The notes: a model not told the origin generated them from the sequence alone. Numbered from the stretch's first letter, positions 1 through 57,255 are shown. The stretch is DNA of 64,000 bases from Naegleria gruberi (GCA_000004985.1 GG738930.1); one strand, 5' to 3'. Translations and numbers: made by a program.

Positions 1-3000
1 TTCACTTTCATCATACAGTTATGTTCTCATGTGTCTTCAATTTTTGCAACATTTAGAAATTTTACCATCCCTCCAACAAATTGCTGAAGATACATCACTT
101 GGATTAACTGACGAAGATTATTCCAAGCCACAACATGTCAATGCTTATAATACCAAGTATTTGAAGAATTTGGAAAAGCTTCCAACTATTTGGAAAGCCA
201 AGAACCCTCAAAAGGTTGCTTCCTATACACTTGGTCACTTGATCTACTTGTTCTTTGAATTCTATGCTAAGAAGTTTGACTTTGATACTAATTGTATCTC
301 AATTAGAGCTGGTAGTCCAGTTCCAAAGAAAAATGCCAAGACTATTATTTCACTTGAAGATCCATTCGAAATTCGTGATCTTGGATGTGTTGTTTCTAAT
401 GAAATGGGTCCTGTCATTGTTTCTGAATTTAGAAGATCTCATGAAATTTTGTCTGCTGGTGGTTCTATCAATGACTTGCTTGAGGAAAGAGAAGGAGTCT
501 CCTCTGTTAATATTTATCAAATGAAGAGAGAAGTAGGAAAACAAGGTTATGATGATTACTTAGCCAGTGAAGCTGTTGATGAAATGTTGGCCAAGGGCGA
601 ACTTTATCAAGGTGAATTGAGAGTCAATAAGAAGCGTTTCACAACTGAGGCCTATGTTTCAGTTGAAGGTTTTAAAAAGGATGTCTTGGTTGAAGGCCTT
701 AAGAATCGTAACAGAGCAATGCATGGTGATGTTGTTGCCATTAAGATTCAAAAGACCAAGGTTGTTGCTGGTTCTGTCATGAGCAATACTCAACAAGAAT
801 CTGCTAAGAGTCCAGAAGATACTGAACCTGCCACTGAAAAGATTGAAGTCGTAGCAACTGATTCTAATCTTGATGAGTCTGATGAAAATGTAATGATAAC
901 TGGTGTTGTTGTTTCGATCTTGAAGAAGAAATCACCATCTATTTTCCCATGTACTTTAATGGCTCAAGATGATATTAGAGGTTACAGATGGCTGTTACCA
1001 CTCGAAAAGACCTATCCAAAGCTCAACGTTCCTTTCGAAGAATTTGAAAAACAATTCAATGCCAAATCTATTACTTTGGAAGAAGGTATTTTCGTTGTTG
1101 AAATGAAACCTTGGAATAAGAATTCAAACTTCCCTAAGGGTGCTATTATTGGTTGCCTTGGTTTGAAGAAGGATTTGTGGAGTTTAAAGAGAGCTCTCCT
1201 CCTTCAATACTGTCCAATTATGTTTGATAATATTTTCTCTGAAAGAAAGGTTGATAGAGACACTGAAAAGGAAATTACTTCTGCAACTTCAAGTTCTGTT
1301 ATGAGTCAATCCATGGCAGGATCTACTGCAGGAAGTGTCGTGGCCAAATCTGGTCTCGAAACTCATGCAGATGATGTTAAAAGAAGAAGTGATTATGGTC
1401 AAAATCAAGTTGCAAACATTGGTGATACTATCAGTGATATCAAACTTGAATCAGTTTCTTCAGATGAAATTATTCAAATTCAAGACTGGAGAGAATCGAG
1501 AAGAATTTTCACTATCGATCCTACTGAATCCAGAGATCTTGACGATGCTATCGCCATTGAACCAATTCTTGAGAATGGCCAACAACTTAACAATGATGCC
1601 TACCGTAAACCATATGCTGGTGTTCGTAAATTCTTAGTCACTGTTGCCATTGCTGATGTTTCTCAATTTGTTCCTGAAGGTTCACCAATTGATAAGGAAG
1701 CCAGAAAGAGAGGTACCAGTGTTTACATGGTCAATAGTGTTGAACATATGCTTGATCCTTCATTGTCTCAAAATCTTTGCAGTTTGCACGGAGGTGTCAA
1801 TCGTTTTGGTGTTGCTGTTGAATTTGTAATTGATAGAGAAACTGCTACCATTGAAAAGAGTAGTATCAAGTTTAATAGATGCATGATGAGATCCGCATGT
1901 CGTTTGGACTACAACAGAGCCCAAAAGATGATTGTTCACTACAAGAATAAGTTCTTTAATGGTCAAAATGAGACTGATCCAAAACGTAGATATGGTCTTG
2001 AACCAGAAGAAGTCCCAGCTGTCTATGGCTCTTTTACCTTGGATGAAATTTATGAAGATGTTCAAATTTTCAATGAACTTTCTCAAAAGTTGAGAAAGCA
2101 AAGAGCTGATAAGGGAAGTATTTTCTTGCAAAACGAACAACTTCGTTTCGAATGTGACATGGATGGTAAAGGTTTCCCATTGAAGGTTGCCTGTGATGAA
2201 CATAATGAATCCCACATGCTCATTGAAGAAATGATGTTGGTTGCTAACGAACTTGCTGCTACCGTTTTGAATGATCATTTTGGTGATGCAACCTTGTTGA
2301 GAGTTCACTCCTCTCCAAAGGTTGAAAAATGGGCTGTCACTGTTTCATTGCTTGCTGATAAGATTTACAAGTGGAAGCTTGACAATGTTACCAGATCAGG
2401 TATTGCAGTTGAAGCAGAAAAGGAAAAGGCTCACGTTTTAGATAAGTTGGAAAAGTGCGTTAAACATGTAACAAAGGGAGCTGAAAACAATGAGAAGCCA
2501 ATTACAATTCAAAACATTATCAATCTCCTCATTGAATCCACCAAGGATTATCCAACATTGATGCATACTATTCAACACAGTCTTTTGAGAGAAATGCAAT
2601 TGGCTCAATACGCCACTGTTGGAGATTGTAAGAAGGGAAAAGAAACTACTAAGGAAATTGTTGTTGAACCAACAGATATTGGCTCCAAGAGAATGGTTCC
2701 TAAGAAGCAATTTGAGAATACTTGGCATTTTGCTTTGTGCAAGGAATTCTACACTCACTTTACTTCTCCAATCAGAAGATATGCCGATTTGGTTGTTCAC
2801 AGATTGTTGCTTCAAATGATTCGTGAAAAGAGACTCAAGGAAATGAATCAATCAGATGAATCTATTCTCAGTAAGAGAGAAACTTCCTTGTCAGCTCAAG
2901 AAATTTCCTCCATTGCTGAACATCTTAATGATCAAGCCTATAGAGCAAGATTACTCCAAGACGAATGCGAAAAGCAATACTTGGCATATTATTTGTGGCC

Positions 3001-3829
3001 AAAACTTTCCAAGTCTGTTGAAAGAGTTGAAGCAGTTGTCTTGTCTATGGGTAAGAGAAGTTTCACCCTCTTTGTACCAAAATACGGTCTCGAACTCCAA
3101 GTTAATGCTATGAAGCACTTCTCCCCAACTCCTACCACACTCAAGATGGACGAAATTGAAATGGAAAGCCTTGTTTCAAACAGTATTTTGAAATTAGGAT
3201 CTCAAAGTGGTGAAGATGAAGATGCTCCAGTTATTGGTGGTACTATTATTGAAAAATTGACCATCACCTGGTCTGGTGCTTCACAAGCCCTTATTTCTGT
3301 GGATGATGACGAAAATTCAGCTCCTACAGACTCTGTTCCTGTTGCCTCTCAACATAACAAAACTATTGAGCTCAAACCACTTAAACAAGTTCTTGTTGAT
3401 TTGGACATTAATACCTCGTCTGTTCCTCTTGAAATTATTTGTTACAATATTTGGGAAAAGGATGAAAATTTGATCAATAATGAGTTCAGTAAGAAGATTA
3501 TTGATAAGAATACCAAGGCTGTCTGCAGTAGAAATGCACATGGTTCCAAGCAATTCTCCTCTGATAGTACTACAGCTGTCCTCAAGAGCTCATCAGAAGC
3601 TCAAGGCAAGCAAATGGAAAAGCTTATCGATAACATGCAAAAGATCAATAGAAGAAAGAAATTCTTTGAACAAGACAATAACAACAATTCATCTCCATAC
3701 ACATCAGGAGGAGGTTCTTCTTCATCAGGCCCTAACAATAATTTTGAAAGAAGAGGAAAACCATTTGCAAGAGGAGGTGGTAACGTGAATTCAAGAGGAG
3801 GTGGTTCCAGAAGACAATACAATCAATAA
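1..3829 (+). CDS. 5'-truncated gene: PAP/25A-associated (Cid1/TUTase-type) domain fused in frame to a Dis3L2-like 3'-5' exoribonuclease (cold-shock domains, RNB domain, S1 domain, C-terminal RGG-rich tail)
   Basis: The reading frame is open from nt 2 with no stop; the listed ATG at 29 is internal. Residues ~50-125 (FYAKKFDFDTNCISIRAG ... ISLEDPFEIRDLGCVVS) match the PAP-associated domain of Cid1/TUT4-type nucleotidyltransferases. GELRVNKKRF...NRNRAMHGDVVAIKI matches the Dis3L2 CSD. RNB hallmarks are ESRDLDDAIAIEP and HFTSPIRRYADLVVHRLL. The tail carries RGG/RG repeats. Stop TAA at 3827-3829. Confidence 0.8.
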   Translation, partial: SLSSYSYVLMCLQFLQHLEILPSLQQIAEDTSLGLTDEDYSKPQHVNAYNTKYLKNLEKLPTIWKAKNPQKVASYTLGHLIYLFFEFYAKKFDFDTNCISIRAGSPVPKKNAKTIISLEDPFEIRDLGCVVSNEMGPVIVSEFRRSHEILSAGGSINDLLEEREGVSSVNIYQMKREVGKQGYDDYLASEAVDEMLAKGELYQGELRVNKKRFTTEAYVSVEGFKKDVLVEGLKNRNRAMHGDVVAIKIQKTKVVAGSVMSNTQQESAKSPEDTEPATEKIEVVATDSNLDESDENVMITGVVVSILKKKSPSIFPCTLMAQDDIRGYRWLLPLEKTYPKLNVPFEEFEKQFNAKSITLEEGIFVVEMKPWNKNSNFPKGAIIGCLGLKKDLWSLKRALLLQYCPIMFDNIFSERKVDRDTEKEITSATSSSVMSQSMAGSTAGSVVAKSGLETHADDVKRRSDYGQNQVANIGDTISDIKLESVSSDEIIQIQDWRESRRIFTIDPTESRDLDDAIAIEPILENGQQLNNDAYRKPYAGVRKFLVTVAIADVSQFVPEGSPIDKEARKRGTSVYMVNSVEHMLDPSLSQNLCSLHGGVNRFGVAVEFVIDRETATIEKSSIKFNRCMMRSACRLDYNRAQKMIVHYKNKFFNGQNETDPKRRYGLEPEEVPAVYGSFTLDEIYEDVQIFNELSQKLRKQRADKGSIFLQNEQLRFECDMDGKGFPLKVACDEHNESHMLIEEMMLVANELAATVLNDHFGDATLLRVHSSPKVEKWAVTVSLLADKIYKWKLDNVTRSGIAVEAEKEKAHVLDKLEKCVKHVTKGAENNEKPITIQNIINLLIESTKDYPTLMHTIQHSLLREMQLAQYATVGDCKKGKETTKEIVVEPTDIGSKRMVPKKQFENTWHFALCKEFYTHFTSPIRRYADLVVHRLLLQMIREKRLKEMNQSDESILSKRETSLSAQEISSIAEHLNDQAYRARLLQDECEKQYLAYYLWPKLSKSVERVEAVVLSMGKRSFTLFVPKYGLELQVNAMKHFSPTPTTLKMDEIEMESLVSNSILKLGSQSGEDEDAPVIGGTIIEKLTITWSGASQALISVDDDENSAPTDSVPVASQHNKTIELKPLKQVLVDLDINTSSVPLEIICYNIWEKDENLINNEFSKKIIDKNTKAVCSRNAHGSKQFSSDSTTAVLKSSSEAQGKQMEKLIDNMQKINRRKKFFEQDNNNNSSPYTSGGGSSSSGPNNNFERRGKPFARGGGNVNSRGGGSRRQYNQ

Positions 3830-3868: not shown

Positions 3869-3918
3869 NNNNNNNNNNNNNNNNNNNNNNNNNNNNNNNN
3901 NNNNNNNNNNNNNNNNNN
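3869..3918. other. assembly gap (50 N)
   Basis: Run of N in intergenic space downstream of the RNB gene. Confidence 0.95.
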
Positions 3919-4049: not shown

Positions 4050-5531
4050 ATGGATCCTAATAATAATAATTTACCATCTTCAACAATAGATTCCTCCCCT
4101 TCATCATCATCAAACAAAAAGACTAAGAAGAAACTTACCTTCTCTTCCTCTACTGATAATACCCAACAAAAACAACAGAATGTCCCATCACCAACAGGAG
4201 GGAAGAAGAACGTTTCCTTCCGAGGATCTTCATCCAATGAGGCAATTTCATCCTCTGCTGCTTCCTCTTCAAAAAAGAGTACTAGTATTAGTATTAAACC
4301 TTCTAGTAACAGTAGCTTTATTCCAGAAACTCCACCAGATCATGTGATGGCCTCCAATTCATTGAGAATGAGATATCTATCGGATGATATGATTGAGGGA
4401 GATTCGTCCGATGATGATAATAGTAAATCAGATTCATCTGCGAATGGAGATGATAATAGAGCTGCTTCTGTGATTAGTACGAGAACTAATTCACAGGGAT
4501 TAATGGATTTGGAAGATCAAGATGTGATTGAGGAAACACCAAAAAGGCCATCCATTAGAAAATCAGCAAAATCTGTAGCTTATACAATGGAACATTTGGG
4601 AAATAGATCTTCTTTCTATGATTTTGAAACTATTGGAATGCATCGATCAGCTACGAGATCAAATTTCACAGGAAGAACTATGGATCGTTCCATGTCTTTT
4701 TATCCAGGTTCTGCTGTGAGTCCTAGTTCTAAGCTCACTCAACAAGAATTCAAACGTAGAAATTCAATTAGAAGAATGAAATCAGTATTTGACTTTTCGA
4801 GAGATGAAAATATGCTCCACGATGGACGTGCCTTATTTTTTGATCCTGAAAGAGGAGCTTTTATTGGAGGATCAGAGGATGATTTAATGTATTCAGGTGG
4901 AATGAGTCAAGATGAAGATGAAATGAGTGAATCAGCAAAGAAAAAGTTTTCGTACAGAGCCAAGAAGTGGATGAAGGAAAAGTATGCTGCCTTTGTGGAA
5001 AAGTTAAAGATTGTAATGAGATTTATCTATACTATCACTTTTGGAGTTTTATTGTTTTTGATATTTAATTTATTCTCTGGATTGAGTTTCATTACAGTCT
5101 TTGGGGCTGATTATGGCAAAACCTTATTTAAATTATCCTTCTTTATGCTTAATCCGTTTAACAAGAGAGTTTTCTTTGGATATTTGATAGAGCAGACAAC
5201 CAGTGGTGCAGGAGAAAGAACTGGGTTGTTATCTTCTTCAAACACCTCATCAGAAAAGCAAAAGAAAAAGTATCCAATCTCAAGGTTAGTGAAACACTTG
5301 TTTTGGGTGTTACTTATTGGACTGCCAATGACTTTTGTACAATCATTTATTGTCATTATGTGTTGGTTCCCAATTATACCAATTCCAATTTCAAAACTCA
5401 TTTTCAGTATTAACAAGAACATGTTCTTGCCAAGTTTTATTGATTTGACCATTACAAGGAGAGTGGAAACATCAAATTCCAATTCAATTAATAACGAAGA
5501 TAATGATGAAGAGAAGAAGGAAGAAACCTAA
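4050..5531 (+). CDS. hypothetical Ser-rich protein with C-terminal transmembrane segments
   Basis: 493-aa ORF starting at an ATG. The N-terminal half is Ser/Asn-rich low complexity. The C-terminal ~170 aa contain 3-4 hydrophobic helices. It lies in the same frame as the downstream CAX gene, 15 nt away. Confidence 0.4.
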   Translation: MDPNNNNLPSSTIDSSPSSSSNKKTKKKLTFSSSTDNTQQKQQNVPSPTGGKKNVSFRGSSSNEAISSSAASSSKKSTSISIKPSSNSSFIPETPPDHVMASNSLRMRYLSDDMIEGDSSDDDNSKSDSSANGDDNRAASVISTRTNSQGLMDLEDQDVIEETPKRPSIRKSAKSVAYTMEHLGNRSSFYDFETIGMHRSATRSNFTGRTMDRSMSFYPGSAVSPSSKLTQQEFKRRNSIRRMKSVFDFSRDENMLHDGRALFFDPERGAFIGGSEDDLMYSGGMSQDEDEMSESAKKKFSYRAKKWMKEKYAAFVEKLKIVMRFIYTITFGVLLFLIFNLFSGLSFITVFGADYGKTLFKLSFFMLNPFNKRVFFGYLIEQTTSGAGERTGLLSSSNTSSEKQKKKYPISRLVKHLFWVLLIGLPMTFVQSFIVIMCWFPIIPIPISKLIFSINKNMFLPSFIDLTITRRVETSNSNSINNEDNDEEKKEET

Positions 5532-5546
5532 GATAAATCCATTCAC

Positions 5547-7450
5547 ATGGTTGATCCTTTCACTTTCAAAGCATTCAAGATGAAATTATTCTCTATTAGA
5601 GTTCCACTCATCAACTTGCTTCCTCTCGTTGCCTTAACTATTGGACTTCATTATGGTATGGAAGATGACTTTACAACCAAATATAGTATGGTCATCTTTG
5701 CCTTGTCAATTGTTGCTGCCATGCCTCTTGCTTTCATTATTGGCCATTGTGTTGAATCTATTGTTGCTCAAACTTCATTTGTTTTTGGAGCATTGTTGAA
5801 TGCCACATTTGGTAGTATAATTGAACTGATATTATACTTCTTAGCTCTGTACAAGGGGTTGCAGGGTGTGGTTGTGAACTCTGTAAGTGGTGCAATCTTA
5901 GGTGCTGTCTTACTTACTCCAGGGCTTGCCATGGGCTGTGGAGGTCTTAGATACAGGGAACAATACTTTAATAGATATGCTGCAGGTGTTTCCAGCATCT
6001 TGTTATTCATTGCAGTTGTTGGTGCCTTCTTGCCATGTTTGTACTACTTGTCATTTGGTGTTCAGCAATTGAAATGTGGCCAATGTTTGAATGGTTTGCC
6101 ATACAATAGAACGAAGGAAGAGCCAGATATTTATTCGAAAGGACTATTATCAACTAGTACAGCACCTTATTCATCATTTTCATCCAATATTGAAGGAGTC
6201 AACAATCCTCCTGAAGCTGATTCCTCTTGGTTTGATACTGCTAAACGTAGCTTTAAGAGTTTGTATGGTAGAAAGTACAAGAGGCCCAACAAATCAGTTC
6301 ATGGAGCGAACCTTAAAGAAATTACCAAAAAGACAACAATTGGAACAATTTATGGGGCTCCTGTCGAAATTGCTCCTCGCTCCTTCTCACCAATGGATGA
6401 AATTCAAAATTATCACACCTTATTGGACTTAAAATCTGCAGATTTATTATTGACCAGTAATTATACTCCAGTGAGTAATTTCACCAACAACAGTACCTTT
6501 AGTATTCGGTGTGTTGGTTGTGATATTTCATTGGAAGACTTTGTCCATGATCCTCTCTATGAAAACAAGGTGAGACCACTTGCATTCACAGCAGCAATTA
6601 TCTTACCATTTGCCTACTTTTTCGGATTATTCTACAGTTTGAGAACCCACAGATTCTTAATGCAAAAACCACCAAAGAAGGGATTCTCTGGAGAAGGAGA
6701 ACACCAAGAAAAAGAGCCAGAAGATGACCAAGAACAAGAGGAAACAAACTCAACAAAAGGAGATCAATTAGATGATAATAAGAGTGCTAGTAAGGCGTCA
6801 ATGGAAAATCTGAAAGATTCTGACAGCGAAGGACATGACCAATCTCTAATTAAATCAGAAAAAGACGAGTCGAACAAAACAGAAGAAGAGGAGGAGGAAA
6901 GTATTTGGCCTATCTGGTTGGCTATTTTAGTTCTCATTTTGTGTACTGCAGCATATTCGTTCGTTGCAGTTATGACTTCAGCACTTGGTAAGTTTGTTTT
7001 TTACTATATTTCTCAAATATTTAAATGAAATTGTTAACTCGTTCATCAACAAATTCAGAACCTGCCTTTGAAAGTATTGGAGTTAGTGCAGAATTTGCTG
7101 GATTAACCTTCATTGCAACTGTGCCAAGTATGGGCGAATTCCTCAATGCAATTCAATTTGCCTGGATGGACAATGTTACACTTGCTTTGGAAATTGGTAA
7201 CGTTGCTGCTATTCAAATTTCTCTCCTTCAAATTCCAGCTCTTGTCTTGGGATCCTTCCTCATCTTTGAAGGAAATGAAAATATGATTTTTTCCCTTACT
7301 TTCCCTCAATTCAATTTGATGGCCATCTTCTTCTCAGTTCTCATGTTGAATTACATTAGTAGAGATGGACGTAGTAATTACTTCCACGGACTGGCTCTGG
7401 TGTTTGTCTATATTTTCATTGTGGTTGGATTTTTCTTCATTTATCTGTAA
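5547..7450 (+). CDS. cation/proton exchanger of the CaCA superfamily (CAX-like Ca2+/H+ antiporter); join(5547..6987,7059..7450), ~610 aa
   Basis: Eleven predicted TM helices with a central acidic loop (EEEEEES). Alpha-repeat-like motifs GALLNATFGSIIELI and GNVAAIQISLLQIPALVLGS are present. One 71-nt intron (GTAAGT...TTCAG) joins the two track ORFs in phase; the junction reads ...TSAL-G-E-PAFESIGVSAEFAGLT. Confidence 0.75.
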
Positions 7451-13160: not shown

Positions 13161-14882
13161 ATGACATCGAATAACTCTTCATCCTCGAATGGTGGGGATA
13201 GCACTTCTACTACTTCAGAAACCACAACGACAGAGAGAATGAATTCTCCACAACAAATGTCATTAACTGTCAACAATAATCAGCCGCAAGCCAGTGTTTC
13301 AACACAGTGTGAAATCGAATTGGCAGATATAAAGGATAACCAGATTTCTCCTAACTCTGCTGAAGAACATATTAAATCCTCTGAAACTAGAACACCAAGT
13401 GATTGTGATGACGTCTTATCCACTACTGCTGAAGTTAACTTTGATTGTCAGTCACCAATGAAAAAGCCAACATCAAAGTGTGATTTTGAAATTCCAACTT
13501 CACCACAATCGTTGAATCCAGCTGGATCCAGCACCACTAACCTAATTTCTGATGATAAGCTTGTGAAAAAGTTACCAAACAATAGCAAGTCAGTCACAAT
13601 GATAACACAAGAAGAACAAGCATTCGATACCAAAACTGTAAATAGTTACCAAAGCAAAGCAACCTCTAAGACATCAAAGACATCAGGCGGGTTTTCAGTT
13701 GCCACTTGTTGTGGTACTGTGGAGCTAAACTGTATTCGTGTCTTGTCAATTCTAGGTATGATGATCAACATTATTGCCTTTGTTGCCATGGCAGTTGTGA
13801 TTTCAGTTGCCTTCTCCGTCTCCACTACTAACGAAACTGAATTGTTGATACTCAGAGCTGATGCTAACTTGATGAGTGAAGTAGCTGCTTCTTCACTAAA
13901 GATTGCCGTGTATTCTAATCAAACCGAACCCTATATTTCCAGATGGAAAACAACTAAAGATAAGGCCGTTGCAGCTATTGCTTCGATCGTTGATGCCCTC
14001 CCACCCGATGTTTTCCTCAGACTTCTCAATGGTTCTACATACTTCAACTCTAGCGCAATTCCAGTCAATCCCTATGAACAACAAGTGGTAAACCTGTTAA
14101 AATCAGGCAAGCAGAAGGAAGCCATCACTCTCATTGAAAGTAAGAATTATACTTCCTACTCTCTTGGATGGAAGAATGTGGTTTCTAACTTGTTGACCTA
14201 TGCAAAGGAATTGGCAAGAAACAAGAATGATTACTTGTTGACCTCTTCAAGTGTCAACATGGGTCTCATTGGTTTTTCAATTCTGCTGGTTGTTCCAATT
14301 GTGTTGGCCATCTTTATTATGGCCATCAATAGAGAAGGTGTTTCTCAAAAACGTCTCAAAAAGGCAAATGCTGTCATGTTACTCGACACACTGCAGGATC
14401 ATGCACTCAAAGCACTCTTTAGAAAGCATTGTGAAACTGAAAGATGTTTGGAATCATTTGAATTTTTGGAAAAGATTCATTACTATAAGGAATTCTGTAA
14501 TGACTCATTCGATATTCAAGTCAAACTTTATGACAGTAGTCACCCAACACAAACAGAAAAGAAGTCCCTCGAATCCGATCTCAAGGAAGTTGAACAAAAG
14601 AAGTATGAGGTTGCCTTTGAAATTTTCACAGAATTTATTGATGAACATGGAGAAAAGGCACTTGTTGTCACAAGCCATTTGTGTGAAGATGTCAAGATGA
14701 AATTGGATCATTTCAATACAGGACAATCAGACCATTTGAGTGACGAACTATTCGACAAACTTCAAACTGAAGTTGCCATCCACTTGTTGGATTGCCATGC
14801 CAGATTCAAGCAAAGTATTGCATTCCAAAAGAAGATGAAAATTCAAGATATTCGTTCCAAAACCAAGATTACAGGTAAATGA
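13161..14882 (+). CDS. two-TM membrane protein with C-terminal RGS (regulator of G-protein signalling) domain
   Basis: ATG at 13161. Ser/Thr-rich N-terminus. TM1 is LSILGMMINIIAFVAMAVVISVAFSV, followed by a ~150-aa loop with N-glycosylation sequons, then TM2 GLIGFSILLVVPIVLAIFIMAI. RGS signature: ALFRKHCETERCLESFEFLEKIHYYKE ... EIFTEFIDEHGEKALV ... LFDKLQTEVAIHLLDCHARFKQS. Confidence 0.65.
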   Translation: MTSNNSSSSNGGDSTSTTSETTTTERMNSPQQMSLTVNNNQPQASVSTQCEIELADIKDNQISPNSAEEHIKSSETRTPSDCDDVLSTTAEVNFDCQSPMKKPTSKCDFEIPTSPQSLNPAGSSTTNLISDDKLVKKLPNNSKSVTMITQEEQAFDTKTVNSYQSKATSKTSKTSGGFSVATCCGTVELNCIRVLSILGMMINIIAFVAMAVVISVAFSVSTTNETELLILRADANLMSEVAASSLKIAVYSNQTEPYISRWKTTKDKAVAAIASIVDALPPDVFLRLLNGSTYFNSSAIPVNPYEQQVVNLLKSGKQKEAITLIESKNYTSYSLGWKNVVSNLLTYAKELARNKNDYLLTSSSVNMGLIGFSILLVVPIVLAIFIMAINREGVSQKRLKKANAVMLLDTLQDHALKALFRKHCETERCLESFEFLEKIHYYKEFCNDSFDIQVKLYDSSHPTQTEKKSLESDLKEVEQKKYEVAFEIFTEFIDEHGEKALVVTSHLCEDVKMKLDHFNTGQSDHLSDELFDKLQTEVAIHLLDCHARFKQSIAFQKKMKIQDIRSKTKITGK

Positions 14883-15213: not shown

Positions 15214-18200
15214 TCAATTATATATACTTTGAGTAATCCAAGTATCCAATGGAATATTGATAGGACTTGAATATTTATCCAATGCAATCTCTTCTCCTTT
15301 CATTAGATTTTCAGAAAAGAGAGATTTTGATTTTTCACTTCTCAGTTCCTTGTAAGTTGAGTTTGAGATGTGAACTTGATTGACCTTTCCTGTTGCTTCC
15401 ATCATTTGAGCAATTTCAACTGCAGGTCCAAATAAATCATATGTTCGTTTCACTTTTCCAACAACTGCTGCGATCACATCATTTCCAGTGTGAATTCCCA
15501 ATCGAACTGATAATAAATGATCAGTATTTGTGTAGGTAGTATATTGTTTCATGTTTCGAATCATTGCAAGACCTCCCTTTACAATGTTATCTGCATGATT
15601 GGTCTCACTCTTCGAAAGACCTGAAGCAACAAAGTAACAATCACCAATGGTCTTGATTTTCTCCAAATTCAGTTCAGTACAAACATTGTCAAAGAGTGTG
15701 AAAATGTCATGTAAGATTTTGACAACATCTTTTGGTGATTTTCTTGAAGAGAAATCAGTGAAACCAACCATATCACAATATAACATGGAGCAGGAATCGA
15801 TTGTGTCAATGACAGTCTGGCCCATGCTCAATCTTTCTGCAATACTTTTTGGGAAAATCTTTTCTGCAATTCTTGTCATGTGTTCTTCTGGTGTTGACAA
15901 TGATTTGTAATCTCTGAGATAGGCCACATAGGATGGTTTTCCATCAGTGACAATTTGTGAAATTTTAATTTCCAAAGAAATGATCTTTCCAGATTTGGTT
16001 TCTCCCTTCACTTTCCGTGTTACATCCACAACGCCATTTTCTCTACTTCGACATCTATCCAAATAACTGTCATGTTTCAACCTATCTCTACTGTTGCAAA
16101 TAATCTTGACATTTCTTCCAACAATTTCCTTTGGTTCATATCCAAATGTAGATGAAGCTGCCTTGTTAAAAACTTGAATAATTCCCTTGTCATTAATTGT
16201 AATGACTGGAATGATACTTAGATCAGTAATAGCATGTTTGAAAGAGTTTGTAACAGCTGCCTGATGTTCATTATCAATTTCCTTGAAGAATTTCAAATAG
16301 ACACAAAAGTGAATTTCTTGAAGTTTCTTAATTGGAATAATTCTTGCAGTTACAATGAAGAATTGTTTAAGCATGGTAGCTTTGGCTCTGAGATATCGTT
16401 CCTCTGAGAGTGATTTCCTTCTTGTTGCTTTTTCTTCCTCACTCAATTGACTATATGGCTTAATATCATCGAGATAGTTCTGATCAGATCCAATTTTATC
16501 TGCCTTCAGAGTGCTATTCTCTGTTGGACCCAAGAATTCATACATGGCTTGATGAAGTTCAACGGAGGCATCATCCAAGAATAATTCACTAACATGTTCT
16601 CCCATTGCACTGAATGAATAAACTCCAAATAAATCCTCTGCTTCCTTATTAAGAAACTCAATGGATCCAAGTTTGTCAAAAACAAGAACTGGAAATCCAC
16701 AATGAACAAATTGATGAACTAAATAATTCAATTGAGAGAATTCTACCTGATGTGTAAATCCAACTTCATCACAAATTTCTCTCTGACTCAATACAGTAGT
16801 ATCTGTTGTTGACCTGATTGAAATTTCACTTGTTGTATCAGAAAAGTTTCCATCAGATTCTTCCAATCGTTGCTTCAATTTTGAAAGGAATCTTTGATTA
16901 ATTGACTGTTTGTATCCTTGATCATTTCTTGACATTCCTCTATCCACAGGAGGTGGTCGTTCCTGAGTGGTGTTTGTTGTTGGTGTTGGTCTTTGTTTTG
17001 GTACAGAACTAGCTTCTCTCATATAGACACTACTCTCTCTTTGAAGTGCCCCTCTTGGAAGCTCAGAAGATCTCGTCACTACACTATTTTCTCTTTGAAG
17101 TTGACCACGAGGTCTTTCAGAAGATGACGACTGATTCCTGACAGAGTTTTCTCTCTGTAAAAATCCTCGAGGTGCTCCACTTGTCATGATGCTGTTCTCT
17201 CTCTGGAGAGTTCCTCTTGGATTTTGAGAGGCAATCATCAGACTATTCTCTCTTTGTAAAACAGAGGTTGCTCTCCTATTAGAGGAAGTCATTTCAGTAA
17301 TTGGTGTCTTTTCTGTTGTTGAGGTAAAAACTGAATTTTCTCTCTGGAGAGTTCCTCTCTTAATCATTTGTGAATTTGATGAAACCAGAGGAGGAGGAGG
17401 AGCCTGTTGTTGAAGAATATCCTTTGTAACAAGTAAGGAAGATCCCTCTCTGATGAGTATTCCTTTTGGTTTTGATGACTCGCCTGCTATTGAATTATCT
17501 CTAATCAATCGAAAACTTGGCTTTAAATCCACACCCTCCAGAATATTCCGAGAACTTGATGTATTGATTGATGAGGAATCGAGTGGAGCTGATGATACAG
17601 AGCTTGTTGGTTGCTGTTGATTTTGCTTCTTTGCCAAGAATTCTGCAAAAGCTAGTTGATGTTCATCGAGTAATTGTTGAGTGGAGGAGCTTATCTCAAC
17701 ACTGCCTCCACTACCAGAATTCATGTTATTCTTTGGAGTTGGTTTGAAATTCACACCAGAGAGAATATTCCTCGAACTCTGACTATTCAATGTGCTTTTT
17801 GGTGATGAAGAATTTTGAAGAGAAATTGCTGATGGTGAGGAAACTTCAGGTTGAGCTTCTTGTATGGTTATCTTTTTAATCATGGTACCTCCAGAGCCAG
17901 CCAGTATATTCCTCGAGCTCTGGCTATTCAATGCGCCACCTGTTGTTGCTATCTGTTCCTTCTTTTGTGCAATGTATTCCCTTAATTCCCGATCATCATC
18001 ATCATTGCTTAATTGAATTTTTCTGGATGATGAAGAGAAGCCATTGGCATTCAGTGGAATCTTTCCATTGTTTGCCATCATGATGGAAGAATTGGCAAAT
18101 ATATTTCTCGAACTCTGATGATTGAATTGTGCTGATGATTGTTGAGCTGTTGTTGGAGTTGTTTTCATCTTTTGAGCCAAAAACTCCTGTAAGGCCTTCT

Positions 18201-18231
18201 CATCTTCATTGTATCCATACAAATCGTCCAT
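15214..18231 (-). CDS. PAS-domain adenylyl/guanylyl cyclase (class III), paralogue 1
   Basis: Catalytic motifs MLYCDMVGFTDFSS, KIKTIGDCYFVASGL, GIHTGNDVIAAVVG and FGPAVEIAQMMEATG. PAS/PAC region upstream. The track start at 18369 is TTG; the ATG at 18231 (MDDLYGYNEDEKALQEFLAQK) aligns with the paralogue start MTNYDDDDDDKALQEFLAKK. Confidence 0.85.
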   Translation of the reverse strand: MDDLYGYNEDEKALQEFLAQKMKTTPTTAQQSSAQFNHQSSRNIFANSSIMMANNGKIPLNANGFSSSSRKIQLSNDDDDRELREYIAQKKEQIATTGGALNSQSSRNILAGSGGTMIKKITIQEAQPEVSSPSAISLQNSSSPKSTLNSQSSRNILSGVNFKPTPKNNMNSGSGGSVEISSSTQQLLDEHQLAFAEFLAKKQNQQQPTSSVSSAPLDSSSINTSSSRNILEGVDLKPSFRLIRDNSIAGESSKPKGILIREGSSLLVTKDILQQQAPPPPLVSSNSQMIKRGTLQRENSVFTSTTEKTPITEMTSSNRRATSVLQRENSLMIASQNPRGTLQRENSIMTSGAPRGFLQRENSVRNQSSSSERPRGQLQRENSVVTRSSELPRGALQRESSVYMREASSVPKQRPTPTTNTTQERPPPVDRGMSRNDQGYKQSINQRFLSKLKQRLEESDGNFSDTTSEISIRSTTDTTVLSQREICDEVGFTHQVEFSQLNYLVHQFVHCGFPVLVFDKLGSIEFLNKEAEDLFGVYSFSAMGEHVSELFLDDASVELHQAMYEFLGPTENSTLKADKIGSDQNYLDDIKPYSQLSEEEKATRRKSLSEERYLRAKATMLKQFFIVTARIIPIKKLQEIHFCVYLKFFKEIDNEHQAAVTNSFKHAITDLSIIPVITINDKGIIQVFNKAASSTFGYEPKEIVGRNVKIICNSRDRLKHDSYLDRCRSRENGVVDVTRKVKGETKSGKIISLEIKISQIVTDGKPSYVAYLRDYKSLSTPEEHMTRIAEKIFPKSIAERLSMGQTVIDTIDSCSMLYCDMVGFTDFSSRKSPKDVVKILHDIFTLFDNVCTELNLEKIKTIGDCYFVASGLSKSETNHADNIVKGGLAMIRNMKQYTTYTNTDHLLSVRLGIHTGNDVIAAVVGKVKRTYDLFGPAVEIAQMMEATGKVNQVHISNSTYKELRSEKSKSLFSENLMKGEEIALDKYSSPINIPLDTWITQSIYN

Positions 18232-18733
18232 CTTTTCTTTGTCAATAAATGTACAAGGTAAATTATCTTCCGTCTTATTAAGGCACTTAATATTCTTCTT
18301 CTTCTGCTTCCAATTATTGAATTGATAATACAAAAAACAAACTCTAGCAGCAGTAGCAGAACAATACAAGTTGGGTTGATCTTTTTCTTTTACGTTAACT
18401 GTTTTGAATATTATTGTGTTTGCTAGTTTGCAAGTTTCCTTGCTTGTGTGAAGAGTTTTTTCTAAACCTCAAATCAGAAGTTCATGATGCCTTATTCTTA
18501 AAGTGCGGATGAGGGCACTTTATGACCAGTTATGGAAGAGAGCTGTTGTGTGAGATTCTAAGGGCCTTGTTGAGGGAACAATTTCACAATTACATTCATC
18601 AAGCATTGAAATCATGAAAAGTCTTGATATTTAATATATATATAAATAAATGGTCGAAAATTGATAAAGAAAATTTGAATATTTAATTTCTTGTGAATTT
18701 GTAATGAAATAATTATTAAAATTGAGTATTTAA

Positions 18734-22020: not shown

Positions 22021-25000
22021 TTGAGTAGAACCACAACAAGTTTAAGGCTAGCGTGCTATAACGTAAATGGTTTATATAAGCACGCAAGCCATAAATCAGT
22101 TACTCCTGAATTGAAATCCATGTGTTTAACACATGGAATTCACTTTATGAGTTTAACTGAAACTCACTTAAATACCCCAGAACTAGAAATAGAAGTCAAA
22201 AACTCTGGATCAGGGTACCTATTATTTAACTCATTAATGAATACAAGAAAAGGTTGCAAAGGTACTGCAGCTATGCACTTTCTAAATAATTATAGAAAGC
22301 GCAATATTACAAATAATAATCTCGTACCTGGAACATTACAATGGACACGATTCGAAAGTCGTGGAATTCCAATTAACATCTTCACAATTTATCTTAGTGG
22401 AAGATAATGATTATGACAATGAGGAAGAAGCTCTTAATAGCTTTATTAATGCTGCCCTCACAATTAAAGATGAACATATTATTTTAAGTGGTGATATTAA
22501 TATTGATACAAGAAATCCCACTAGTAAAAGAGAAAAAGACTGGCTATGGATACTTAATCTACTCAGACTAACCGAATTACAAACATCCAATAATACTTGG
22601 ATAAGAAGAGTTCAATCTAATATTTTTGAATCGAAACCTGATCATGTCTTTGTGTCAAAAGACATAAGAATAGTTAAAGAAGTGCTCATGCCTCCATTAA
22701 CCACTAATGATCACATTCCTTTCTATATAGATCTCGAATTTAAATCTAACTTAACCTGGAGACCTTACTTTAGTAAGAGTAAGAGAAAGAAAATATATGA
22801 AGAAATTAATAAGTCTCCTATAGATAATTTCAAAGAGTTAAATCAAGCTATCTTGACTCAAATTAACAAATATGGCTCCAAAACTGATAGATTAGGTGTT
22901 GGTCGAATCTCAACAGCCTATAAAGAAGAAATTCAAGATTTGGAAGAAGAAATTCTTCACAAATTAAATAATGAAACTATTTCTCAATCAGAAATATCTG
23001 AATTACAAACATTACTGAAAGAAACTCATATTAAAAATGGAAAACATATTAAGGAAAAATTGATAGAAGAATTCAATGATAGAACTTCATCTAAAATGTA
23101 TCAATTTGATAGAATGGTTCATTCCAAAGAAATTAAATGGAAAGATATTAATTTCGAAGAAGAGGAAATTTTAGAATACTTTACAAATAAGTTTACCTCG
23201 ACTAATCAACTTCCAACATTCATTCCAAGTAGATCAACTATTAAAGAAGGACCAAATTGGACCAACTCGATCCATATAGAAGAATTGGAAAAAGCTTTAA
23301 AACGTATGAAATCAAATACCCCTGGTCCTGATCTAATTTCTCTGGATATTATTAAGCATCTCACAGAAAAAAATCAGAAAATTTTATTGAACGAATTTAA
23401 TAATTGCCTAAGAATAGGTGATATCTCTGAAGATTGGAAGCAAGGATGGGTGAAACTCATTCCTAAAAGAGATATCACTTCTCTCAGTGACATTCGTCCA
23501 ATCACTATTTTACCTACATTTTATAGAATTTTATTTAATATTATAGCCTTTCGACTTAGATCTTGGGCATCATCTCATATAAATATGAGACAACAAGCAT
23601 TTATTACAGACAGAAACACTTTAAATCATGGTGTCCTTCTATCATCATTAGCTATGAAAACTAAGAAAAGAACCTTCATTCTTGTTAACCTAGATATTGA
23701 AGGAGCTTATGATGCTGTAGAATTGTCAGTGATTAAAATGGCACTAGACCATTGTAAATTTCCTAACGAACTCACTCAATTTATTATTAATGCCTATAGC
23801 AACCATGAATTGAGCCTAGAAATTGATAATCATCTATCCACAAAATTTACAAAAACTCGAGGAATCCCACAAGGATGCCCATTGGCTCCTCTTATATACG
23901 ATTGTATCACACAATTAATTATTGATAAAGCAATAGATAAATGGAAAATACCAATCAAACCAAACAAACTATGTGCTAATGATATTGCACTCTGTTGCTT
24001 TGCAGATGATATGAATGTTGTCTGTGACAGATATGCCAAATACAATGACAGGCTAGATAACATACATGACTGGCTAGGTCAACTACTTTTTAAACTAAAT
24101 GCAAAGAAATCAGTTGCAACTCTACTACCTAAAACAAGCAAAGTATCTCCCAAAATTAAGGGTACACCTATTCCTAAACAAAAAAACCTTAGGATACTTG
24201 GACATTATCCATGGGATGATATTCTGGTTCGACAAGATATCCAAAACAAAATTGAAAAATTTACCAAATCTTTGAAATTTCTCCCATTATTCAAAATTGA
24301 ACCAGATAACCTTAAACAAATTATTCACGCTAAAGCTATTAGCTTATTTACACACCTTTCTAAAATTAACTTAATTCCTCTGAAAAAGGCACAACAAATT
24401 GATATAGCCATTAGAGGAGCAATTAGAAGAAAACTATATATGGACAGGAAAACACCAACCAGCTTATTCCACTTACCATTAGAAAAAGGTGGATTAGGAC
24501 TACCATCTATTGTAGAATTTTCTGAAAGAATGAACCTAAGAACCATGACCTTAATTGCTAACAGTAACAATTTACTCGTCAAGAAAGCTTTCAAACATGG
24601 TATCAAGCACTGTGAGGAAACGAAAGACAATATTTATTCGAAATGGCTACTAGTACTAAAAGAATACAACCTCACACTTAAGAAAAATGAAATGAAATTC
24701 AAGTTGAAAAAAATCAAAACAGGAAATAATTTTGATATTCACACTGACGGATCAAGACTCGAATCAAAGACTGGAATGGGGATTAATATCTATGATTGCT
24801 CCAATATGAACACTCCAGTTAGATCTTTATCCCTCCATATTAATGATCAATATTCAAATAATGTAGCTGAAATATGCTCTATTATTACAGCAGCTAAAGT
24901 TATCCCAAGAGACTCCAAGATTAAAATCCATACTGATAGTAATGTGGCAATTGAAGTTCTCAAAGAACGATATAAGGGAAACTTTCTACCACTAAAAAAA

Positions 25001-25705
25001 GCCTTCTTTAAAACCATTAAGGATAGAAAACTTGAATATGAATTCAAGAAAGTTGAAGCTCATAAGGATAAGGAAAATATCAAAGTTGATTTATTGGCAA
25101 AGAATGCAACTCTGAAACCTAAAATCTTTGATATCCGTAAACTACTCTTTAATCAATATATCCTCACAAAGAACGATATTATAATCTTTGACTATAAGAG
25201 GTTAACTACCTCACAACATTTAAGGCTAATGCTTGACAAGATAGAGAGTCACCCCAATCACATACCTAACCTAGATTGGAACTCTATCAACGTCAGCTAC
25301 CTTAAATCCCATTTGTCTCCTAAATCTAAATATTATATTTGGAGAAACTCTTCAAATGCCCACATCAATTTTGGTGAGGGTAAAAGTTTCTGTCATGATT
25401 GTAACACAGAATCTGACCTTAATCACTATATTCATGAATGCCCTGCTCTGGATAGTGCCAGATACTTTTGCTTGTCAAAAATATCTGATATTCTTGATCA
25501 GAGAGAGTGTAAACTCACTCATATTCAATTCAGACCAGAAAAGCATCACCATGTACTCTTCTTCCACCATTCTGGAACCACATTCTTCGAAGATGGATAC
25601 GTACAACAATACCCAGACATTGCAGAGAAATGGCCTGAGATCCAGGGAGCCATTTCTAACTTTGTCGGCCGCTCCTATAGATATTATTATATTGACTCAA
25701 TGTAA
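22021..25705 (+). CDS. LINE ORF2 polyprotein (APE endonuclease-RT-RNaseH), interrupted by a +1 frame change near 22361-22407
   Basis: The APE domain begins in frame 1 (22021-22407) and continues in frame 2 (22361 onward, SGDINIDTRNP). The frame-1 ORF begins at TTG, not ATG. An (AAT)n-rich frame-2 ORF at 21674-22024 overlaps the ORF1/ORF2 junction. Confidence 0.65.
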
Positions 25706-29933: not shown

Positions 29934-29983
29934 NNNNNNNNNNNNNNNNNNNNNNNNNNNNNNNNNNNNNNNNNNNNNNNNNN
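29934..29983. other. assembly gap (50 N placeholder)
   Basis: It separates the truncated hydrolase gene from the truncated cyclase paralogue; both are incomplete at this junction. Confidence 0.95.
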
Positions 29984-42389: not shown

Positions 42390-44872
42390 TTATTCCAAAA
42401 TGTTGAGAGTTGGTGTTTGAGCTTGTTGTTCACATAATCGAAGTAAATGTTGGGTTGGAAGGTCATTTGGGTTGACTTGTTGATATTCTCGAAATAGAGG
42501 AATGGCTTCTTCAAATTTACCTTCAAACAGAAGAGAGCAACCTTGGTTGTAAACTCCCCATTTTAAATATCTTTCCTTCTTATTGAAATGTGAATGTAAA
42601 TCTTTGGTCGAGTTAAGTAAATGAGTAGAGATTGGAAACTTACCATCATCAGTTTCTTGTTTCATTTCAATTGAATCTCCCAATTCATATAATAAACAAT
42701 CTTTTGTCAATGAATTTGACATAGAAACACTTCCAATTTCCCAATTTTCTTGGTTGAAATCATCTAGAGAGGAAAAGAAATAATCCTCCCTTAATTCTCT
42801 TCTATCCAGGAATCTAGTCTCACACCTAGTGTGGCAATATTGCTTGATGTGCTGTGTGATAATGATTGGAACTTTGAGTTTCTTGCCAAATCTTATTATT
42901 TGATCCAAATTATGTCTCGTGCTTGAAAAAATTGTAAAGTGCTTAATGTCTTTAGTTCCAATATTTCCACAAAATGTTTTTTGAGCACAAATAGCAAATC
43001 TGAAATTAATCAATTCACAAATTTCCTCCCTCAATAGTCCACTTTCTCTCCACTTGTTTTCTTTCACGTTGGTTAACTTTTCTTGTAAAAGTTGAGCGCT
43101 GGCAACTGCTTTTTCTTCGTGATTGTTCTGGTTAATAGTAGTATTATAAGCAATAGTTAAAATATCATTCTCAAAGTTGACCAAATGGCCAGATGTAGTC
43201 CTAATCACTGTGTCCACTTGGCTAAATAAATCTCCCAACAATGAAACTAGATGAGTTGGGTTTCCTTCTAAGGATAACAACCATTCATTCAATCCTTCAA
43301 TGTACATTTGATTGATACTAATCTTTCTTGGTTCCAAATAGAGAGAAAATTTGCATTTCAATTTAGATGATTTTTTCTTACTGTCCAAAATATTAGATAA
43401 TTTTGAAGCTTTCCCTCCTTCAAGTGAATTATCTTCAATGCTTGAAAATGGTTGACTTTTTTCCAATTCAACAGAATCTGAAGTCATTGTTCTAGGTGAA
43501 AAGGAATCCAACGAAAGTCTAGTTGCAGTTTCTTGTTCTCCATTTNNNNNNNNNNNNNNNNNNNNNNNNNNNNNNNNNNNNNNNNNNNNNNNNNNNNNNN
43601 NNNNNNNNNNNNNNNNNNNNNNNNNNNNNNNNNNNNNNNNNNNNNNNNNNNNNNNNNNNNNNNNNNNNNNNNNNNNNNNNNNNNNNNNNNNNNNNNNNNN
43701 NNNNNNNNNNNNNNNNNNNNNNNNNNNNNNNNNNNNNNNNNNNNNNNNNNNNNNNNNNNNNNNNNNNNNNNNNNNNNNNNNNNNNNNNNNNNNNNNNNNN
43801 NNNNNNNNNNNNNNNNNNNNNNNNNNNNNNNNNNNNNNNNNNNNNNNNNNNNNNNNNNNNNNNNNNNNNNNNNNNNNNNNNNNNNNNNNNNNNNNNNNNN
43901 NNNNNNNNNNNNNNNNNNNNNNNNNNNNNNNNNNNNNNNNNNNNNNNNNNNNNNNNNNNNNNNNNNNNNNNNNNNNNNNNNNNNNNNNNNNNNNNNNNNN
44001 NNNNNNNNNNNNNNNNNNNNNNNNNNNNNNNNNNNNNNNNNNNNNNNNNNNNNNNNNNNNNNNNNNNNNNNNNNNNNNNNNNNNNNNNNNNNNNNNNNNN
44101 NNNNNNNNNNNNNNNNNNNNNNNNNNNNNNNNNNNNNNNNNNNNNNNNNNNNNNNNNNNNNNNNNNNNNNNNNNNNNNNNNNNNNNNNNNNNNNNNNNNN
44201 NNNNNNNNNNNNNNNNNNNNNNNNNNNNNNNNNNNNNNNNNNNNNNNNNNNNNNNNNNNNNNNNNNNNNNNNNNNNNNNNNNNNNNNNNNNNNNNNNNNN
44301 NNNNNNNNNNNNNNNNNNNNNNNNNNNNNNNNNNNNNNNNNNNNNNNNNNNNNNNNNNNNNNNNNNNNNNNNNNNNNNNNNNNNNNNNNNNNNNNNNNNN
44401 NNNNNNNNNNNNNNNNNNNNNNNNNNNNNNNNNNNNNNNNNNNNNNNNNNNNNNNNNNNNNNNNNNNNNNNNNNNNNNNNNNNNNNNNNNNNNNNNNNNN
44501 NNNNNNNNNNNNNNNNNNNNNNNNNNNNNNNNNNNNNNNNNNNNNNNNNNNNNNNNNNNNNNNNNNNNNNNNNNNNNNNNNNNNNNNNNNNNNNNNNNNN
44601 NNNNNNNNNNNNNNNNNNNNNNNNATAACAAACACACTCATTAATGTCAAACTCGAAATTACTATAAGCATACAATTTCTTATAGAAATTTGGCAATTGC
44701 TCGCCGATAAGAAGAAGACGGAAGAGTTTGTATCCGAATTATTGTATTTTCTATTCCAATCATTGTCTTCATAACTAAATCTCCCATTAGAATAAATATC
44801 ATGTTGAGGTAAATCAAAGGCAAGAGGTAAAACCTTACGAGAGGACGTTGATGATCGCCTTGTGAGTGGCAT
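42390..44872 (-). CDS. cyclase-homology-domain protein with degenerate catalytic residues plus C-terminal TPR-like region; interrupted by a 1079-N gap
   Basis: The C-terminal part (42390-43545) aligns to a class III cyclase domain (HLVSLLGDLFSQVDTVIRTTSGHLVNFENDILTIAY; FRFAICAQKTFCGNIG; FTIFSSTRHNLDQI) but lacks the first metal-binding Asp and the N/R transition-state residues. A TPR-like helix pair follows. The N-terminal fragment is at 44625-44872. Confidence 0.5.
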
Positions 44873-57094: not shown

Positions 57095-57255
57095 GTTTAA
57101 TAAAAATCTATTCGAAAAAAGTTTAGTTTCGAATTGGATTCTTTTCCTTTTTACTAAATTTGATTCAAACATACCAATTTTGGAGTCGTACTGGAACCTG
57201 TAATTAGATGTTGTGATAATTGGAAAGTTTTGAAATTGCGTTTCCAATAAAAAAA

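Follow-up and report, generated by a model that had tools for sequence, protein, structure and literature searches.

A conserved heterolobosean gene fusion of a Cid1/TUT-family nucleotidyltransferase with a Dis3L2-like nuclease in Naegleria gruberi

The open reading frame and the full-length protein

We analysed a stretch of 64,000 nucleotides of Naegleria gruberi DNA (GCA_000004985.1, GG738930.1), called the window in the following. Its first 3,829 nucleotides hold the 3' part of a gene in which a nucleotidyltransferase (NTase) module of the Cid1/TUT family is fused to a nuclease of the Dis3L2 type (Table 1). A first-pass annotation, made from the sequence alone, had described a single open reading frame (ORF) joining a Cid1/TUT-family PAP-associated domain to an exonuclease of Dis3L2 layout, and the Pfam domains, judged here against the curated gathering cut-offs, indeed lie within one frame. 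This frame was said to be open from the first base. It is uninterrupted, but with a phase offset of one base: the first full codon begins at base 2 (frame 2, plus strand) and no stop occurs before the TAA at 3827-3829, which gives 1275 codons. Frames 1 and 3 contain many stops over the same region. All peptides quoted in the annotation (FYAKKFDFDTNCISIRAG, ISLEDPFEIRDLG, DLDDAIAIEP and HFTSPIRRYADLVVHR) were recovered from the translation.

The PAP-associated domain near the start of the ORF is matched by PF03828 above its cut-off; the annotation had named the absence of such a match in residues 40-130 as grounds for its own refutation, and it passes this check. The annotation had assigned the first ~130 residues to this domain, but PF03828 covers residues 76-123 only, and residues 1-75 are already nucleotidyltransferase, with the SLSSYSY motif, so that the NTase remnant extends beyond the PAP_assoc match. 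The layout proposed for the remainder, with cold-shock domain (CSD), RNB domain, S1 domain and an RGG tail, agrees with the domain calls, as CSD1, CSD2 and RNB all exceed their cut-offs. S1 was recognised by other means: Pfam makes no S1 call in the window ORF, residues 687-795 of human DIS3L2 align downstream of the RNB domain, and the AlphaFold2 (AF2) model of an ortholog (P0008) has a beta-rich C-terminal domain and superposes on whole Dis3L2 chains (TM ~0.7). A Dis3l2_C_term match at ORF residues 1010-1035 stays below threshold (16.7 bits vs 31.6). The linker between the two modules has a low predicted local distance difference test (pLDDT) score in the ortholog model (P0008 residues 435-450). 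RG-rich tails comparable to that of the window protein are found in the orthologs P0002, P0004 and P0009.

Table 1. Coordinates of the fusion gene, its domains and motifs, and other features of the window
Feature	Position (nt)	ORF residues	Strand	Basis
N. gruberi NTase-Dis3L2 fusion gene, last 1275 codons with TAA stop	2-3829		+	Open frame; identity to P0001
Nucleotidyltransferase module, C-terminal part (PAP/OAS1 substrate-binding or 'fingers' half)	2-496		+	Aligns with URT1 ~171-339 and TUT7 1143-1308
SLSSYSY nucleotide-binding motif (base-stacking)	2-22		+	Invariant in 11 orthologs
PAP_assoc (PF03828)	227-370	76-123	+	Pfam E 8.9e-11, 42.3 bits vs cut-off 22.6
Nucleotide recognition motif EDPFEIRDLG	356-385		+	Aligned to URT1 EDPFETSHDLG and TUT7 EDPFDLNHNLG
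Arg at the position of the selecting His (R1050 of the full protein)	374-376	125	+	URT1 and TUT7 alignments
Linker of ~30 residues from the end of the NTase module to the Dis3L2 CSD1, with NIYQ motif	452-547		+	Protein-level conservation among orthologs
Cold-shock domain 1 (Rrp44_CSD1)	551-751	184-250	+	Pfam 29.8 bits vs cut-off 22; aligns with human DIS3L2 47-117
Cold-shock domain 2 (OB_Dis3, CSD2)	983-1210	328-403	+	Pfam E 1.4e-11, 44.7 bits vs cut-off 22.8
RNB catalytic domain	1496-2824	499-941	+	Pfam E 6.6e-80
RNB motif I FTIDPTESRDLDDAIAI	1508-1558		+	Translation
RNB motif IV HFTSPIRRYADLVVHR	2756-2803		+	Translation
S1-like beta-rich C-terminal domain (approximate bounds)	3020-3457		+	DSSP strands 1064-1160 in the P0008 model, mapped by alignment
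Low-complexity Gly/Ser and RGG-rich tail	3704-3826	~1235-1275	+	Translation
Neighbouring 493-aa ORFs; domains: YccF membrane (one ORF), Na/Ca exchanger (other ORF)	4050-5531, 5547-7028		+	
RGS-domain genes	13161-14882, 57220-59766		+	
Two large adenylate/guanylate cyclase genes with PAS domains (in the second, TPR repeats as well)	15214-18369, 45117-48647		-	
ORF of 1114 aa; domains: reverse transcriptase (RVT_1, 4e-28), RNase H	22361-25705		+	Surroundings A+T-rich (29-31% G+C)
Runs of N (assembly gaps)	3869-3918, 29934-29983, 37793-38044, 43546-44624, 48688-49877, 53307-53920			

The window ORF matches the C-terminus of P0001, a protein of 2200 amino acids deposited as 'ribonuclease II family protein [Naegleria gruberi]', with 100% identity and 100% coverage. 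It corresponds to residues 926-2200, which is the C-terminal 58% of the polypeptide, and the remaining 925 codons at the 5' end lie upstream of the window. The first-pass annotation had predicted that the catalytic NTase domain (GS...DxD) would be found there in the same protein, and this is where P0001 carries it. Pfam detects MTPAP-like_central, the palm domain, at residues 722-878 (7.5e-20) together with NTP_transf_2, and the Pol-beta signature is complete, with G771-S772 following a Tyr, D784-I-D786 and D858 as the third carboxylate. The GS, the DxD and the third Asp are invariant in 9-11 orthologs. The public name of the protein conceals half of the enzyme.

From the N- to the C-terminus, P0001 consists of an RG-rich low-complexity head, a coiled-coil region, a helical-repeat region, the NTase, the ~30-residue linker, the Dis3L2 module and the RGG tail. 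The ~700 residues N-terminal of the NTase, outside the window, thus comprise the RG-rich head, a coiled-coil-like stretch of acidic or basic character and a conserved block at residues 404-637, which is modelled as an all-helical repeat with pLDDT 79. This block gave no significant structural match (best E 0.05) and no Pfam match, and the whole ~700-residue region is without detectable relatives in Pfam and in the structure search of block 404-637. Judged by eye, the N-termini of P0005, P0006 and P0009 resemble a cold-shock domain (e.g. GKVSFLSEKDGLGYIE, VDFVDTVLGFGFAK), a segment which is absent from the Naegleria and Willaertia proteins. If real, it would mean that a Lin28-like RNA-binding module was added to the fusion.

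Conservation of the fusion

The NTase-Dis3L2 architecture is also found in N. lovaniensis, Willaertia magna, Percolomonas cosmopolitus (MMETSP) and several metagenome or SRA proteins at 32-60% identity. The whole gene is one uninterrupted ORF in W. magna (L001, 3001-9027), in an ENA contig (L002, 594-6950), in a JGI contig (L003, 3001-7965) and in a Logan contig (L005, 6001-10470). A relative with a degenerate nuclease, P0052, is likewise encoded by a single uninterrupted ORF (L004, 2233-7254). The Percolomonas peptide P0009 from the MMETSP transcriptome contains both halves and, being derived from a transcript, supports the fusion at the mRNA level in a second order of Heterolobosea. Since the same architecture and continuous ORFs occur in several organisms, the fusion is old and true and not an artefact of the gene model. 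It is conserved across Heterolobosea.

The junction between NTase and CSD1 lies at the identical position in 11 out of 11 aligned sequences, and the linker is kept as protein among the orthologs (…EEREG…NIYQ…DY..H…). We searched 1.84 billion representatives with a profile spanning this junction. Among the best 150 of the 14,396 matches, about a dozen 50%-identity representatives cover the stretch from NTase to CSD1, while the other top matches end with the NTase module; more divergent fusions could lie beyond this range. About a dozen junction-covering representatives indicate a small, coherent family. A word-indexed search with the same profile returned stand-alone NTases only and did not recover the known fusions, which makes it unsuited as a census.

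It might be argued that two neighbouring genes were merged during assembly or gene calling, or that the ORF is a read-through product with no single protein behind it. For N. gruberi the 5' part of the gene is taken from the public protein model, and a Met at ORF residue 174 (MKREV...), just before CSD1, might in principle initiate a stand-alone Dis3L2. This Met, however, is not conserved, whereas its surroundings (NIYQM) and the linker as a whole are conserved as protein. Furthermore, the window is free of stops from PAP_assoc to RNB, so that the supposed upstream gene would have no stop codon, the same unbroken arrangement recurs, in different organisms, at five or more independent loci, and the transcriptome-derived Percolomonas peptide covers both halves. 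The first-pass annotation had itself considered that the PAP-associated segment might belong to a separate transcript; the single ORFs of the orthologs, P0009 and the conserved linker speak against this. We regard a merged-gene artefact as effectively refuted and give it hardly any credence.

Predicted activities and the nucleotide added

Among proteins of solved structure, the NTase matches URT1 of Arabidopsis first (1.6e-27), then human TUT7 and TUT4, and then CutA (3.7e-20), GLD2 and Cid1. The alignment of the NTase part in the window to URT1, TUT7 and TUT4 covers ~170 residues, and the AF2 model of P0008 superposes on URT1 (TMt ~0.8) and on the catalytic module of TUT7. By sequence and predicted fold, the transferase half is therefore placed nearest to URT1 and TUT7/TUT4. 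The features of Cid1/TUT4/7/URT1-type ribonucleotidyltransferases are present, namely the Pol-beta signature hG[GS]-x(7-13)-DhDh with a third carboxylate, and PF03828 C-terminal of the palm domain. The metal ligands, the triphosphate-binding Lys residues and SLSSYSY are invariant among the orthologs.

For the nuclease half the first match of solved structure is human DIS3L2, with 4e-51 (177 bits) vs 2e-44 (155 bits) for Rrp44, a modest margin. The alignment with human DIS3L2 begins at residue 47, the start of the folded CSD1. With the P0008 model as query, ranks 1-6 of the Foldseek search are all Dis3L2 (S. pombe, human and mouse), over ~690 residues and with TMt ~0.7, and the best database matches which are not fusions carry the name DIS3L2. 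By sequence and modelled fold the nuclease half accordingly appears nearest to Dis3L2, with modest margins. The catalytic Asp cluster DxxxxxDxDD and the Arg/Tyr of motif IV are present (FTIDPTESRDLDDA, HFTSPIRRYADLVVHR), as is the CSD1-CSD2-RNB-S1 layout, in which CSD1 and CSD2 are Pfam calls and S1 is inferred. Motif I, DPxxxRDLDDA (DPxxxxDLDDA), and motif IV, HFTSPIRRYAD (YTHFTSPIRRYAD), are invariant in 11 orthologs, including the four Asp of the former and the RRY of the latter. The PIN and CR3 domains are the exosome tether of Dis3 and Dis3L1, and Dis3L2 has neither. No PIN domain was matched by Pfam in the window ORF, in P0001 or in the orthologs, and the NTase lies directly N-terminal of CSD1. 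With the catalytic residues conserved in both halves, the NTase and the nuclease both look active, as far as this can be read from the residues.

Two fusion relatives, P0042 (JGI metagenome, 1412 aa) and P0052 (NCBI GCA_037189345.1, contig JBBCKJ010042548.1), have an active-looking NTase (GSS...SDIDL) and a CSD2, and start with an RRM-like segment. Their RNB catalytic Asp cluster and RRY are gone (…FTISDHKIKSTAFAV…, …EFTSPAMAFTNLFAHR…) and Pfam does not detect RNB, while the fold-defining regions are kept. Each resembles a fusion of a transferase with a Dis3L2 pseudonuclease. The fungal pseudonucleases Ssd1/Sts5, inactive relatives of Dis3L2, have similarly lost the RNB catalytic residues (PMC8097288, PMC8934651); they differ from the window protein, in which RNB is intact, and from P0042 and P0052, in which an active-looking NTase stands in front, not present in Ssd1. 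A homolog search with P0052 as query returned P0052 itself only. In another metagenomic protein, P0131 (JGI, 857 aa), the family-specific motif EDPFELRDLG is followed by a degenerate CSD1-like segment with no RNB; this protein is a fragment, or else a variant in which decay has gone further.

We think it likely that the N. gruberi polypeptide combines an intact transferase of the Cid1/URT1/TUT4/7 family with an intact 3'-5' exoribonuclease of the Dis3L2 type, and that it first tails RNA and then degrades it in cis. Substrate RNA would be bound by the N-terminal region together with the RG/RGG tails, and the transferase would add a few non-templated nucleotides, probably pyrimidines (U, possibly C/U), to the 3' end of the bound RNA. 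Such a tail would provide the single-stranded 3' extension which the RNB enzyme requires for engagement. The tethered Dis3L2 could then thread this extension via the CSD/S1 funnel into the RNB active site and degrade the RNA processively, structured RNA included, without help from the exosome or a helicase. We make this proposal because the pathway from terminal uridylyltransferase (TUTase) to Dis3L2, in which RNA is marked for Dis3L2 by uridylation, is established (PMC6451125) and because two physical couplings of this kind are known, TRUMP and the MPsome. The fusion, its conservation and the two intact active sites are established; the nucleotide added, the hand-over between the sites, the substrates and a cytoplasmic location are what we infer in addition.

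Several points weigh against this proposal. In P0042 and P0052 the RNB residues were lost while the NTase was kept, which implies that the module can work without RNA degradation. The AF2 model of the whole ortholog has a predicted TM-score (pTM) of 0.45 and a mean pLDDT of 66, and at this pTM nothing can be claimed about how the two active sites are placed relative to each other or about domain packing. The 925 codons at the 5' end are known for N. gruberi from the public gene model, supplemented by the orthologous loci. In the nucleotide recognition motif, the D-P-F-E-x-R core, the L and the G are invariant in 11 out of 11 orthologs, with an Arg replacing the UTP-selecting His. URT1 and TUT7 have one residue more in this loop, and the Asp and Glu of the poly(U) polymerase (PUP) cluster are kept. 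In Aspergillus CutA the residue equivalent to Cid1 His336 is Arg557; this enzyme favours CTP, also builds in some U and is processive when it polymerises A (PMC7498324). Tailing followed by degradation is the most likely function as predicted from sequence, models and precedent in other systems, and would make the protein a covalent equivalent of TRUMP and the MPsome.

A different role has to be weighed here, that of a machine for 3'-end processing similar to the kinetoplastid mitochondrial 3' processome (MPsome; RET1 and DSS1), which trims precursors to a defined end and U-tails the product; the fusion might act in an organelle. Heterolobosea and Kinetoplastea both belong to Discoba, the MPsome is a single particle with a TUTase and an RNase II-like exonuclease, both of which serve in maturation (PMC5159558), and the large N-terminal helical region could serve as an MPSS-like scaffold. 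The similarity to kinetoplastid TUTases is, however, weak: among the 25 chains listed at E <= 0.001 there is no RET1, and MEAT1 (2.5e-5) and TbTUT4 (3e-4) stand far behind URT1 at 1.6e-27. A Diplonema RET1 fragment reached just 7.5e-12 against the junction profile. Moreover, the nuclease appears nearest to Dis3L2, with the full CSD1-CSD2-RNB-S1 layout, and the N-terminus, with RG-rich and His/Gln-rich low complexity, is by eye unlike a targeting peptide. A processing machine is in our view improbable.

As to the nucleotide added, U-specific members of the family carry a DxxExxH cluster, the His of which (Cid1 H336, Tailor H522) forms a hydrogen bond with uracil O4 (PMC6344859; PMC5689010); it has been called the hallmark separating TUTases from poly(A) polymerases (PAPs) (PMC6344859). 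Out of 11 aligned orthologs, ten have EDPFExRDLG and P0006 has QDPFEQRELG. DxxExxH is thus incomplete, with Asp and Glu present and His changed to Arg. The ExxNxxR motif of CutA-like C/U adders (E551, N554, R557) is also absent, as only the Arg is common to both, with Asp and Glu in place of E551 and N554. The motif of P0042 and P0052 reads DPFEYQRDLG, with normal loop length and the Arg aligned exactly with the His. The first-pass annotation had called the domain a TUTase; URT1, TUT7 and TUT4 are in fact its nearest solved relatives, but the UTP-selecting His has given way to an invariant Arg. With this Arg in place, uridylation is a presumption, and 'TUTase' is a best guess from overall similarity. 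The missing His makes U-specificity less likely, though some proven U-adders, Sp Cid16 and Ce PUP-3, do without it too (bioRxiv 10.1101/422972). A pyrimidine tail, of U or possibly C/U, appears likely. Stand-alone metagenomic NTases of the Cid1 family (P0020-P0027) often have an Arg in place of the selecting His as well (EDPFxLxRNLN), which indicates that the Arg-type pocket is wider than the fusion family.

The same architecture might instead write a tail which is not oligo(U), either a mixed C/U tail, as expected of a CutA-like 'CUCU' tagger, or A, in the manner of a TRAMP-like adenylase. The tail would then be a generic single-stranded landing pad for RNB, and as a Rosetta stone the protein would say nothing specific about the uridylation pathway. 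The invariant Arg and the CTP preference and processivity with A of CutA fit this possibility, the Cid1 mutant D330E/E333N/H336R adds only ~50% U and 30-40% C (PMC5689010), and CutA and GLD2 are among the solved relatives. On the other hand, the Asp and Glu of DxxExxH are kept (D-P-F-E) where CutA has ExxN (PMC5689010), the U-adders URT1, TUT7 and TUT4 are nearest by sequence and fold, Cid16 and PUP-3 add U with no His, and the partner nuclease appears nearest to Dis3L2, the U-preferring member of its family. We consider a non-U tail plausible, though less likely than not. A further and more speculative version, to which we lend still less weight, is an obligate cis 'tail-and-chew' enzyme, in which the Arg-type pocket would write a C/U-mixed or otherwise not purely U tail that is read by its own co-evolved Dis3L2 as a private heterolobosean decay mark, and in which P0042 and P0052 would be tail-writing RNA-binding regulators. 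If true, the specificity of writer and reader in tail-mediated decay can drift as one unit after fusion.

Known systems, surroundings and significance

A close precedent for the reading we prefer, tailing and degradation in cis, is the Drosophila TRUMP complex of Tailor and Dis3L2, in which a Cid1-family transferase is likewise physically coupled to a Dis3L2-type exonuclease; the decay of structured non-coding RNAs by this complex is triggered by their tails (PMC6344859, PMC5311484). TRUMP is made up of two polypeptides joined via DUF1439 of Tailor, whereas the fusion is one polypeptide with a short linker, and Pfam detects neither DUF1439 nor a zinc finger in the window ORF and P0001. Where the fusion has Arg, Tailor has the UTP-selecting His522, and the fusion adds the ~700-residue N-terminal region, for which no relatives were detected. 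The separate TUT4/TUT7 (Cid1, URT1) and DIS3L2 proteins of animals, fission yeast and plants share with the fusion the two modules, their internal domain order and the catalytic residues. They are, however, products of distinct genes, their recognition motif is DxxExxH vs DxxExR in the fusion, and the CCHC zinc knuckles and the inactive duplicate NTase of TUT4/7 are both absent from the fusion. Mammals are not known to have a stable TUTase-DIS3L2 complex, and a recent kinetic study makes the case against a need for coupling (bioRxiv 10.64898/2026.03.27.714668).

The trypanosome MPsome, composed of the TUTase RET1, the exonuclease DSS1 and MPSS1-3, also brings together enzymes of the TUTase and RNase II families, in a sister lineage within Discoba. 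There the association limits the processivity of the TUTase and activates the nuclease (PMC5159558). The MPsome differs from the fusion in being non-covalent and mitochondrial, and the RET1 and DSS1 lineages are far from those of the fusion. Homology to the RET1-DSS1 MPsome was considered and rejected, since the NTase resembles kinetoplastid TUTases only weakly, and from the sequences the two are probably independent solutions to the same problem. CutA of Aspergillus resembles the NTase of the fusion as a member of the Cid1 family with an Arg at the Cid1 His336 position (PMC7498324). It differs in its ExxNxxR motif vs DxxExR, and it is a stand-alone enzyme which promotes decapping-dependent decay and has no nuclease fused to it.

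The first-pass annotation had set the fusion against a pathway of two separate proteins. The genes are separate in animals and yeast, but stable complexes exist in Drosophila TRUMP (PMC6344859) and in the trypanosome MPsome (PMC5159558), so that the fusion adds to a theme already known and opens no new one. In a full-text search of 8 million open papers and preprints, with subscription-only literature outside its scope, neither this protein nor any TUTase-Dis3L2 fusion was found described, and the open literature held nothing relevant on Naegleria or Heterolobosea together with Dis3L2, TUTase or uridylation. What is new is the covalent form of the TUTase-Dis3L2 coupling, the unusual nucleotide pocket and the large private N-terminal domain; the protein itself is already in public databases, and the finding overturns nothing.

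The window has 36% G+C and is nuclear DNA with assembly gaps. A gap of 50 N starts 40 nucleotides past the stop codon of the fusion, and the next ORF begins at 4050. The runs of N account for part of the low G+C around 42-54 kb, and several ORFs which extend across gaps are artefacts. A tandem duplication was considered for the two neighbouring ORFs of equal length (493 aa) and rejected, as they are unrelated (BLASTP E ~2). With its cyclase and RGS-domain genes, the stretch is rich in signalling genes. The ORF with the reverse transcriptase domain is probably a retroelement, judging by its domains.

That the two are covalently fused, and have long been conserved in this form, supports the functional link between TUTase and Dis3L2 from an independent, evolutionary side. 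As Discoba are a deep-branching lineage, this pairing may be old or may have arisen repeatedly. The need for physical coupling of the two enzymes is still debated, with a stable complex in flies and none known in mammals, and with the fusion the 3'-end hand-over from a transferase to an RNB nuclease could be studied on a single chain, by biochemistry and cryo-EM. The invariant change from His to Arg and the nuclease-dead relatives raise questions on the co-evolution of tail identity and tail reading.

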